DNA of 64,000 nucleotides. It comes from an uncultured Bacilli bacterium. GTDB taxonomy: Bacteria > Bacillota_I > Bacilli_A > RF39 > UBA660. The notes beneath the pieces are model-generated. The model was not told the origin of the DNA. It did not search any database and saw nothing but the letters and a program-made list of their open reading frames with translations. A program made the position numbers and the translations under genes. The stretch covers positions 7,997-71,996 of the forward strand of contig CANROU010000001.1 of NCBI GenBank assembly GCA_947632325.1, given 5' to 3'. Shown in pieces: positions 7,576-8,034 of this stretch (position 1 is the stretch's first letter; the number at the start of each line of letters is the position of its first letter).

Positions 7576-8034
7576 TTAGGGAATATTTATTACTTGTCCT
7601 ACCCTTATAACGTTAACATTTTTAATATTATTATATTGCGCTAATTCTTGAACCGATTTTCCATAACGTTTAGCAATTTGACCTAATGTGTCGCCAGAGC
7701 GTACAGTGTAGCTTGAACGGGAACTAGATTGTTGTTGTTGAGCCTGTCTTTGTCTTTCTTCTTCAATTCTTCTAGCCTCTGCTTCTTCAGCAGCAATTTG
7801 ATTAGCGGCTTGGCGCATATTATTACCAAGGTTACTGCATTCTCCAATAATTTTATCAATCATAGAAACATATTTATCAATAGCATTTAAAACTTGAGTT
7901 GAGGCGGCATCACTCCAATTGCTTATTAATTCTTGCTTACCATCGCTTAAAGCGCCCTTAATTTCTCTCAAGCTCTCTATGCATTGATTGAATTTAGCTG
8001 CTTGAGTATCCACATTTCCTACATTAATTGCCAT
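7576..8034 (-). CDS. WXG100-like helical hairpin protein fused to a C-terminal LysM peptidoglycan-binding domain
   Basis: N-terminal helix-turn-helix with an ISNWSDAAS turn, a Q/E/R-rich linker, and a C-terminal LysM ([17 protein letters not shown]...[17 protein letters not shown]). The start is placed at the ATG at 8034-8032, 8 nt after a GGAGG. The track ORF started at an upstream TTG inside the RBS. Confidence 0.5.

Follow-up and report, generated by a model that had tools for sequence, protein, structure and literature searches.

What would a secreted WXG100 hairpin do with a peptidoglycan-binding domain of its own? The question is raised by a single gene (7576-8034, minus strand) in a 64,000-nucleotide stretch of DNA from an uncultured Bacilli bacterium (contig CANROU010000001.1). 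This whole 64-kb stretch is called the window below, and coordinates are positions within it unless another locus is named. The gene encodes a protein of 152 residues, here WXG100-LysM, that combines a WXG100-type helical hairpin, a charged stalk and a LysM domain, and it belongs to a seven-gene type VII secretion system (T7SS) cassette whose genes all lie on the minus strand. The reading that we put first, with belief and doubt about evenly matched, is that WXG100-LysM is co-exported by the T7SS as an effector-linked adaptor that binds peptidoglycan, like a WapA wall anchor split in two proteins.

Architecture of WXG100-LysM

The open reading frame (ORF; 152 codons plus stop) begins with an ATG at 8034 and ends with the stop codon 7576-7578. 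A GGAGG read from the sequence at 8040-8044 (minus strand), 5 nt 5' of the ATG, is the putative ribosome-binding site (RBS). A longer, TTG-started frame reaching 8046 is unnecessary. Pfam WXG100 (PF06013) matches residues 2-82 with 33.9 bits (gathering threshold 27.3, E 3.9e-8) and Pfam LysM (PF01476) matches residues 109-152 with 62.4 bits (gathering threshold 20.9, E 3.7e-17). The NCBIfam model TIGR03930 (WXG100 family type VII secretion target) stays below its cutoff (31.7 versus 44.85 bits). Three segments can be delimited on the minus strand: the WXG100-type hairpin (residues 1-85, 7780-8034), marked out by predicted helices, structural matches and the conservation of W40, A77 and E84; an E/R/Q-rich helical stalk or linker (residues 86-106, 7717-7779); and the LysM peptidoglycan-binding domain (residues 107-152, 7579-7716). 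Sixteen of the 21 residues at positions 83-103 are E, R or Q.

An AlphaFold2 (AF2) model based on a 26-sequence alignment (mean predicted local distance difference test score, pLDDT, 83.4) places a helix at 5-39, a turn at W40-S41-D42, a long helix at 43-104 and a beta-alpha-alpha-beta LysM fold at 107-151. The W-x-G turn motif is absent; the turn reads W-S-D. In the model, helix 2 exceeds helix 1 by ∼ 20 residues and runs into the E/R/Q linker, which we read as a stiff stalk that would separate the hairpin from the LysM domain. Foldseek searches of the PDB match the hairpin to Thermomonospora curvata EsxA (4lws, template-modelling (TM) score 0.80 over 97 columns) and Staphylococcus aureus EsxA (2vrz, TM 0.83), as well as to CFP-10/ESAT-6 (3fav) and Bacillus anthracis EsxB (4j11), with target-normalised TM values in the range 0.75-0.83. 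The LysM part superposes on 4uz2 with a root-mean-square deviation of ∼ 1 Å, matches the AtlA LysM (2mkx) and is also close to the Ecp6 LysM (4b8v). The preliminary description of this DNA, made from the letters alone, had proposed a WXG100-like N-terminal hairpin, a W-S-D turn, a charged E/R/Q linker and a canonical C-terminal LysM domain; the profile matches and the model bear out all four.

No signal peptide or transmembrane segment was found in the protein (maximum 19-residue Kyte-Doolittle mean 0.64), and a Sec or transmembrane route was rejected on hydropathy. The target of LysM is an extracytoplasmic glycan. Since there is no Sec signal and LysM acts outside the cytoplasm, the T7SS-type hairpin is the only visible export route.

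Comparison with the orthologue at a related locus (L001) gave 21 synonymous and 9 non-synonymous differences, a ratio of non-synonymous to synonymous rates (dN/dS) of 0.096; the gene is under purifying selection. The linker is the least constrained segment in this comparison. The LysM segment has a dN/dS of 0.33 on 11 changes, with fewer non-synonymous than synonymous changes per site, and is 48-76% identical across lineages. A tblastn search of plasmids found matches to LysM domains only; the best of these, in records from Bacillus plasmids that include annotated wall hydrolases, reach 65% identity to the window LysM. Within the window, tblastn gave no significant match to the other WXG100 genes or to a close LysM copy; recent paralogy with the other WXG100 genes was rejected on this result. 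A second, divergent LysM is found in a LysM-G5-Peptidase_M23 protein with an N-terminal hydrophobic segment (57355-58857, minus strand). The organism therefore also uses the domain in a protein of an ordinary kind, an M23 peptidase whose N-terminus is hydrophobic.

The tailed WXG100 subfamily and the cassette

Relatives were sought with the first 100 residues only, because LysM noise had to be avoided. This query gave 25 matches among 1.84 billion representative proteins. Together with WXG100-LysM they align as one subfamily of tailed WXG100 proteins of 97-223 residues, whose N-termini follow the pattern MAINV..N.QA. PF06013 matches 25 of the 26. W40, A77 and E84 are invariant throughout and I80 nearly so. 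The hairpin ends in the motif A77-x-x-I80-x-x-E83-E84, which is followed by a charged helix and then by a variable tail. The LysM clade has Asp at the Gly position of W-x-G (W-S-D or W-D-D), and many non-LysM members keep W-x-G. None of the subfamily proteins bears a specific name in the sources searched.

LysM is carried by only three relatives, which are also the closest (protein clusters P0002, P0004 and P0005, with 94%, 59% and 40% identity), making four LysM-bearing clusters with the window protein included. Other members have no tail (97-125 residues), a helical extension of ∼ 60 residues, often with two Cys, or a short aromatic C-terminus. Members with the helical extension (often two Cys, ending L..A.R) are among P0008, P0009, P0013-P0019, P0021, P0024 and P0026 (158-192 residues). 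Aromatic or hydrophobic C-termini (FLGWFSSWF, PFSWLFG, IFSRRYW) follow a long E/R/K/A-rich helix, for example in P0017, P0027 and the protein encoded at L014 10001-10435. The non-LysM tails may be alternative envelope anchors.

Further searches returned few fusions. A k-mer homologue search with the full protein found two close relatives and one LysM-only match. A profile search with the hairpin alignment added family members, none of them a further LysM form. Patterns derived from the four LysM forms retrieved only LysM-only proteins from 185,579 species-representative genomes and the JGI metagenomes; the genome of the window is evidently not among the representatives. No account of such a fusion came up in full-text literature searches that paired WXG100 or T7SS terms with LysM or peptidoglycan-binding. 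These results support the earlier suggestion that the fusion is unusual, as judged by searches keyed to this hairpin, so that fusions in unrelated WXG100 subfamilies are possible. The same suggestion had pictured a normally stand-alone WXG100 protein turned LysM fusion. A LysM domain is indeed fused to WXG100, but the case is not a one-off: LysM is one tail type within a tailed subfamily. The architecture recurs in at least four assemblies of independent origin and is therefore neither chance nor an assembly artefact; it is found with the same gene order in assemblies from NCBI, ENA and several SRA runs, at 40-94% identity.

The cassette has the order WXG100, EsxA-like, WXG100-LysM, effector, DUF4176, EssC, YukD-like, and spans 571-8697 in the window, 3181-11454 in L010 and 79-8588 in L031. 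All LysM-bearing relatives share these neighbours, with exactly seven genes in L010-L013 (P0005) and in L009/L031 (P0004/P0054). In these other two lineages the first WXG100 protein has 97 residues, the EsxA-like protein 96, WXG100-LysM 144-149, the effector, which keeps the layout of its window counterpart, 652-673, EssC ∼ 1530 and the YukD-like protein 84. WXG100-LysM stands immediately upstream of the effector gene in every lineage (L001, L009/L031, L010-13), with a gap of 16 nt in the window. EssC lies in the same strand run, an arrangement repeated in L010-13 and L031, and the YukD-like gene comes directly after essC in all lineages. The cassette occupies three different chromosomal sites in the three lineages, each with unrelated neighbours of its own. 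In the window these are ftsY and, next to FtsEX, a gene for a PcsB-like M23 peptidase. One of the other lineages has ADH and LDH genes there, and another has a Clp-type ATPase gene and a small LRR-like gene, after which comes a gene for a class-I aminoacyl-tRNA synthetase.

In the window the EsxA-like core protein (8099-8389, 96 residues) scores 54.3 bits with PF06013 and 94.9 bits with NCBIfam ESAT6_2, slightly under the cutoff of 100. The second core WXG100 gene (8404-8697, 97 residues) scores 38.1 bits with PF06013; its start is probably ATG 8697 and not 8724, which would give a 106-residue ORF, the orthologues having 97 residues and beginning MPTILNDP. Downstream of WXG100-LysM follow the effector gene (5787-7559, 590 residues), the gene for DUF4176, an Ltc-type toxin chaperone (5444-5782; PF13780, 100.2 bits), the EssC-type FtsK/SpoIIIE ATPase (829-5424, 1531 residues; PF01580, 153.5 bits; FHA weak) and the YukD/EsaB-like ubiquitin-fold protein (571-825, 84 residues; PF08817, 19.4 bits, below the gathering threshold of 27). 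At this downstream end ftsY comes after the YukD-like gene. Upstream of the cassette, the minus-strand order is a gene for a toxin-like protein of 780 residues, two small genes and DUF4176, and a gene for a toxin-like protein of 1230 residues, a gene for a 224-residue protein and DUF4176. With EssC, a YukD-like protein, two further WXG100 genes and three DUF4176 genes around WXG100-LysM, the T7SS operon setting of the preliminary description holds. Neither the window nor the surroundings of the cassette in L010/L011 and L009/L031 yielded a gene for EsaA, EssA or EssB, though these proteins may be encoded elsewhere in the genomes. The seven genes may constitute a minimal T7SS subtype. The window (29% GC) also encodes MurA, MreB, a penicillin-binding protein, FtsEX and the PcsB-like protein, as expected of a wall-bearing bacterium. 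A Fic/DOC-domain protein with an N-terminal helix-turn-helix domain is encoded outside the T7SS region (26028-26972).

The cassette is preceded by a promoter-like site (8725-8790, minus strand) with TTGACA, a spacer containing G9 (8776-8784) and TATAAT. Sigma-70-like promoters of this kind (TTGACA...TATAAT), with G9-G10 in the spacer, precede both the cassette and the two extra toxin units. The minus-strand poly-G tracts lie at 8776-8784, 13798-13807 and 17202-17210; in a window of 29% GC a G9 run is expected 0.06 times, and all three that were observed stand before T7SS units. Relatives have tracts in the same place (L001 531-539; L009 3302-3310; L010 3127-3138; L011 2500-2509; L012 3814-3825; L013 3127-3136). 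Tract length varies within one species, being G12 in L010 and L012 and G10 in L011 and L013. This suggests phase-variable promoter spacing through the poly-G tract, with the caveat of homopolymer errors in short-read assemblies.

Effector linkage and competing explanations

Is WXG100-LysM part of the secretion machine or of its cargo? Pairwise identities of the cassette proteins among the three lineages fall into two rate classes. The 97-residue WXG100 protein (76-80%), the EsxA-like protein (73-81%) and EssC (70-77%) are well conserved, and the YukD-like protein has 55-69%. WXG100-LysM (40-58%), DUF4176 (42-53%) and the effector (30-33%) are much more divergent. WXG100-LysM thus evolves with the effector and the chaperone and not with the machine, which speaks for a Lap-like partner that is specific to the effector. 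A role tied to the neighbouring effector is favoured by synteny together with the shared rate of evolution.

The same boundary is marked at the RNA level. A conserved 17-bp stem-loop (8052-8089, minus strand) lies between the stop codon of the esxA-like gene and the RBS of WXG100-LysM, with a predicted RNA fold of -22.1 kcal/mol (z -5.5). Equivalent hairpins of 14-17 bp with compensatory changes are found at L001 ∼ 1225-1262, L009 ∼ 3991-4031 and L010 ∼ 3786-3823, and z-scores across the lineages are -4.9 to -6.8. The stem-loop is likely a partial terminator or an RNA-stabilizing element that gives the two core WXG100 genes an expression different from that of the downstream genes.

Subfamily members without LysM extend the comparison. 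P0046 comes from a different T7SS-like locus (L016), where EssC is split and FHA/DUF6382 genes are present. Its gene stands directly upstream of a gene for a 438-residue protein whose N-terminus resembles the window effectors (shared ...ILRRNNIR..., BLASTP E 8e-4), and that gene is followed by two for small membrane proteins and then by a DUF4176 gene. L016 therefore repeats the order tailed WXG100, effector, chaperone. Behind P0037 (locus L014) come genes for an FHA/DUF6382 protein, a PP2C phosphatase and a kinase in place of an effector. At both loci the family member lies in a conserved core block, after the two WXG100 genes. Effector linkage of the subfamily is frequent, not universal. P0030 (161 residues, L015 8661-9146) is encoded on a Rep3 plasmid-like contig beside Prok-E2/ThiF genes, and no T7SS gene was seen in 11.6 kb.

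The neighbouring effector begins with a helical domain of ∼ 95 residues. Its middle region combines a linker rich in S and T with the motif PGDxNFIGPxP and with Trp-rich amphipathic helices; a low-confidence AF2 model shows this region as disordered or helical. Y-x-x-D-G repeats abound in the C-terminal 390 residues, which RHS/YD models of Pfam and NCBIfam match only marginally. The preliminary description had called this protein LXG1, a name that does not stand: Pfam LXG (PF04740) found no match on the full-length effector and none at E <= 10 on the N-terminal 150 residues of three homologues, and membership was rejected on score. The name describes a layout and not a family, because none of the three large proteins of the window (590, 780 and 1230 residues) matches Pfam LXG. 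A profile search with an alignment of the effector N-termini retrieved no protein, the window effector itself included, and an exact look-up of the 590-residue sequence gave no record.

These three share their first ∼ 130 residues and differ completely thereafter, and each has a DUF4176 gene downstream. The effector and the 1230-residue protein are 69% identical over the first 140 residues. The genes for the 1230- and 780-residue proteins show 100% DNA identity over their first ∼ 390 nt and over the ∼ 45 nt before them, which hold the RBS, the -10 box and the poly-G tract (minus strand, 13372-13806 and 16776-17210); similarity beyond these blocks is at background level. This looks like recent duplication or recombination that swapped C-termini behind a constant N-terminal targeting domain. 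DUF4176 proteins (Ltc) are toxin-specific chaperones that bind a disordered middle region of LXG toxins (PMC12478183). The effector's middle region is of this type. Three effectors with a common N-terminus and a single set of small helical genes fit the idea of shared targeting partners.

A model of the effector-linked adaptor can be proposed. The hairpin of WXG100-LysM would pair with the ∼ 95-residue helical N-terminal domain of the adjacent effector, and possibly also with that of the two paralogous toxins, in a helical bundle analogous to EsxA-EsxB, PE-PPE or LXG-Lap complexes. To this bundle it would contribute the conserved Trp turn and an acidic export arm (I80-x-x-E83-E84); by analogy, the invariant W40 and E84 fit the export logic of Lap proteins. 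EssC would export the complex, while DUF4176 would remain in the cytoplasm as chaperone of the effector's middle region. Outside the membrane the LysM domain, held clear of the bundle on its ∼ 20-residue helical E/R/Q stalk, would bind peptidoglycan, and this would either keep the Y-x-x-D-G-repeat effector on the producer's wall or dock it to the wall of a neighbour. Domains, folds, conservation, synteny and rate coupling are shown by the analysis. Export, effector binding and peptidoglycan binding of WXG100-LysM we infer. The roles of wall tether and of effector targeting, both put forward in the preliminary description, would be mutually compatible.

Several points weigh against this model. 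The fast divergence of WXG100-LysM could equally stem from surface exposure, and the protein is no member of the Lap families by sequence. The effector N-terminus modelled alone is helical but of low confidence (pLDDT 52). No immunity-like gene is adjacent to the cassette effector (window 5787-7559; L010 4306-6264; L031 1193-3214), because DUF4176 and essC come directly after it; in view of this and of its marginal YD/Rhs repeats, the effector may belong with surface or adhesin-like proteins and not with antibacterial toxins. The effector-free context in L014 implies that the subfamily may be a general T7SS accessory and not effector-specific. Finally, single LysM domains usually bind peptidoglycan weakly (AcmA, AtlA), so that a 1:1 complex with one LysM per chain might not anchor firmly.

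A bolder version, which we hold only tentatively and think rather improbable, takes the cassette as a distinct minimal T7SS subtype lacking EsaA, EssA and EssB. Here WXG100-LysM and the Y-x-x-D-G protein would be co-exported and would build the extracellular part of the system on peptidoglycan, a wall-docked platform or adhesin, which would position the two polymorphic toxins with the same N-terminus for delivery to neighbours. If this is true, the LysM tail would be the first identified peptidoglycan-docking element among T7SS substrates, and the subfamily's remaining tails, with their Cys-containing helices or aromatic C-termini, would anchor to the envelope in other ways.

The strongest competitor, doubtful to about the same degree, has WXG100-LysM act independently of the effector, as a stand-alone substrate or apparatus accessory: an exported homodimer would decorate the producer's wall at the secretion site and stand in for EsaA, EssA and EssB. 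Genes for these three were not found near the cassette in three lineages at three sites, and EsaA is the only known wall-spanning part of the T7SSb (PMC10765036); WXG100-LysM is a constant member of the cassette, and its relatives at L014 and L016 are placed behind the two WXG100 genes in the core block. Homodimers are common among WXG100 proteins; S. aureus EsxA (2vrz), one of the structural matches, is an example, and dimerization would make LysM bivalent. However, the protein evolves far faster than the core parts (40-58% versus 70-81% identity), and its location between the core WXG100 genes and the effector, past the stem-loop, groups it with the effector module. The three missing proteins could also be encoded elsewhere in the genomes.

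It is unlikely that WXG100-LysM is a free secreted LysM effector, which would shield the wall against hydrolases or lysozyme, or keep muropeptides away from host receptors, like the fungal Ecp6. The protein is small and soluble, has no enzymatic domain, and its canonical LysM is structurally near glycan-binding LysM domains including that of Ecp6 (4b8v), all of which would suit this role. It leaves unexplained, however, the strict synteny and the rate coupling with effector and chaperone. Moreover, non-LysM relatives with other tails also occur in T7SS loci, and the common function therefore lies in the hairpin.

We consider it very unlikely that the protein stays in the cytoplasm as a chaperone, with the hairpin stabilizing the effector as Lap1 or Lap2 would and the LysM domain either vestigial or bound to a cytoplasmic GlcNAc-containing precursor. 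LapC1 and LapC2 are reported to be unsecreted (PMC10801868), but the LysM domain of WXG100-LysM is well conserved (62 bits in Pfam, with the identity of 48-76% and the dN/dS of 0.33 on 11 changes given above), and the invariant Trp and the acidic arm are features of an export signal. We know of no cytoplasmic role of LysM. A chimeric ORF, made by misassembly or a frameshift that joined a WXG100 gene to a LysM fragment, is effectively refuted by the purifying selection and by the recurrence of architecture and gene order in independent assemblies at 40-94% identity.

Relation to known systems

WXG100 hairpins, LysM domains, helical T7SS adaptors and LysM-anchored repeat toxins are each already known. 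In the literature searched we found no description of a small WXG100-LysM protein fixed in a compact EssC cassette, nor of the tailed WXG100 subfamily to which it belongs. How T7SSb substrates cross or engage the thick Gram-positive wall, and how the toxins reach their target cells, are named as open questions in a recent review (PMC10765036). The present finding bears on both: one polypeptide joins a T7SS-type hairpin to a module for peptidoglycan binding, and the fusion is fixed in a compact EssC cassette with no EsaA, the only known wall-spanning component, nearby. It also defines an unannotated subfamily and shows that a WXG100 hairpin can have a small cargo domain attached that is no toxin. 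The clade is rare and known from uncultured organisms only, and every functional step proposed here is inferred.

With WXG100/ESAT-6-like proteins (EsxA, EsxB, PF06013) the window protein shares a superposable hairpin of ∼ 85 residues, a central Trp, a PF06013 score above threshold and a place near EssC. It differs in length (152 versus ∼ 100 residues) and in its turn (W-S-D versus W-x-G). The C-terminus of the hairpin is not free, helix 2 continuing into the charged stalk and LysM; the protein falls below the TIGR03930 cutoff, and its evolution is much faster than that of the two canonical WXG100 genes in the cassette. The cassette as a whole differs from the canonical T7SSb apparatus in having no EsaA, EssA or EssB beside EssC. 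The SAG1386/EF1546 family (NF042931) is similar in length (158 residues in the profile) and likewise ends in a LysM that a charged region precedes, but membership was rejected: the score is 42.9 against a cutoff of 80, and only residues 81-151 align, leaving the hairpin unmatched. EF1546 itself was tabulated as 'LysM domain protein' among Enterococcus faecalis proteins in a vaccine-candidate study.

Lap proteins are small, helical and encoded upstream of LXG toxins, with whose N-terminal domain they form a bundle, and Lap3 and Lap4 are co-secreted with the toxin (Klein et al., PMC10801868). In LapA3 a conserved acidic residue that ends the helical domain, beside the L/WxG turn of the partner, is needed for toxin export (PMC10801868). 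WXG100-LysM is likewise small, helical and encoded directly upstream of an effector with a helical N-terminus, diverges at an effector-like rate and has an acidic residue closing its helical domain (E84), which can be compared with the NKxxDD of LapA3 by analogy only. The preliminary description had seen a likeness to WXG100 or Lap-type partners, of which the WXG100 part stands; no Pfam match at E <= 1 was obtained for Lap1 (DUF3130), Lap2 (DUF3958), Lap3 (DUF5344) or Lap4 (DUF5082), TIGR04197 was absent from the NCBIfam matches, and membership in the four families was rejected on score. The window protein differs from Lap factors also in its extra folded LysM domain, and in that one gene and not a dedicated pair precedes the effector, unless the two upstream WXG100 proteins join in.

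The 590-residue neighbour resembles LXG toxins in its helical N-terminus, in the variable C-termini among its paralogues and in the associated DUF4176. Zhang et al. (2012, PMC3482391) note LysM or PGB1 adhesion domains in some of the polypeptides of polymorphic toxins. Like the WXG- and LXG-headed toxins of that study, WXG100-LysM joins an N-terminal helical domain for T7SS targeting to a variable C-terminal cargo, but here the cargo is a binding domain and no toxin, and the protein is a small, conserved component of a cassette with no immunity partner.

In Streptococcus suis WapA-CT1, LysM repeats, Rhs repeats and a toxin are united in one Sec-dependent, wall-anchored polypeptide (PMC12704120). 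WapA-type toxins, including Bacillus subtilis WapA, combine a wall-binding module with a YD-type repeat protein on a Gram-positive surface, and the window pair would do likewise. WapA is a single Sec-dependent chain with several LysM domains, a full Rhs cage and a C-terminal toxin, whereas in the window one LysM and the repeat protein are on separate chains with T7SS-type N-termini, the repeats are marginally YD-like and no toxin domain or immunity gene is evident. By this comparison WapA would be the nearest functional analogue of the proposed pair of WXG100-LysM and effector.

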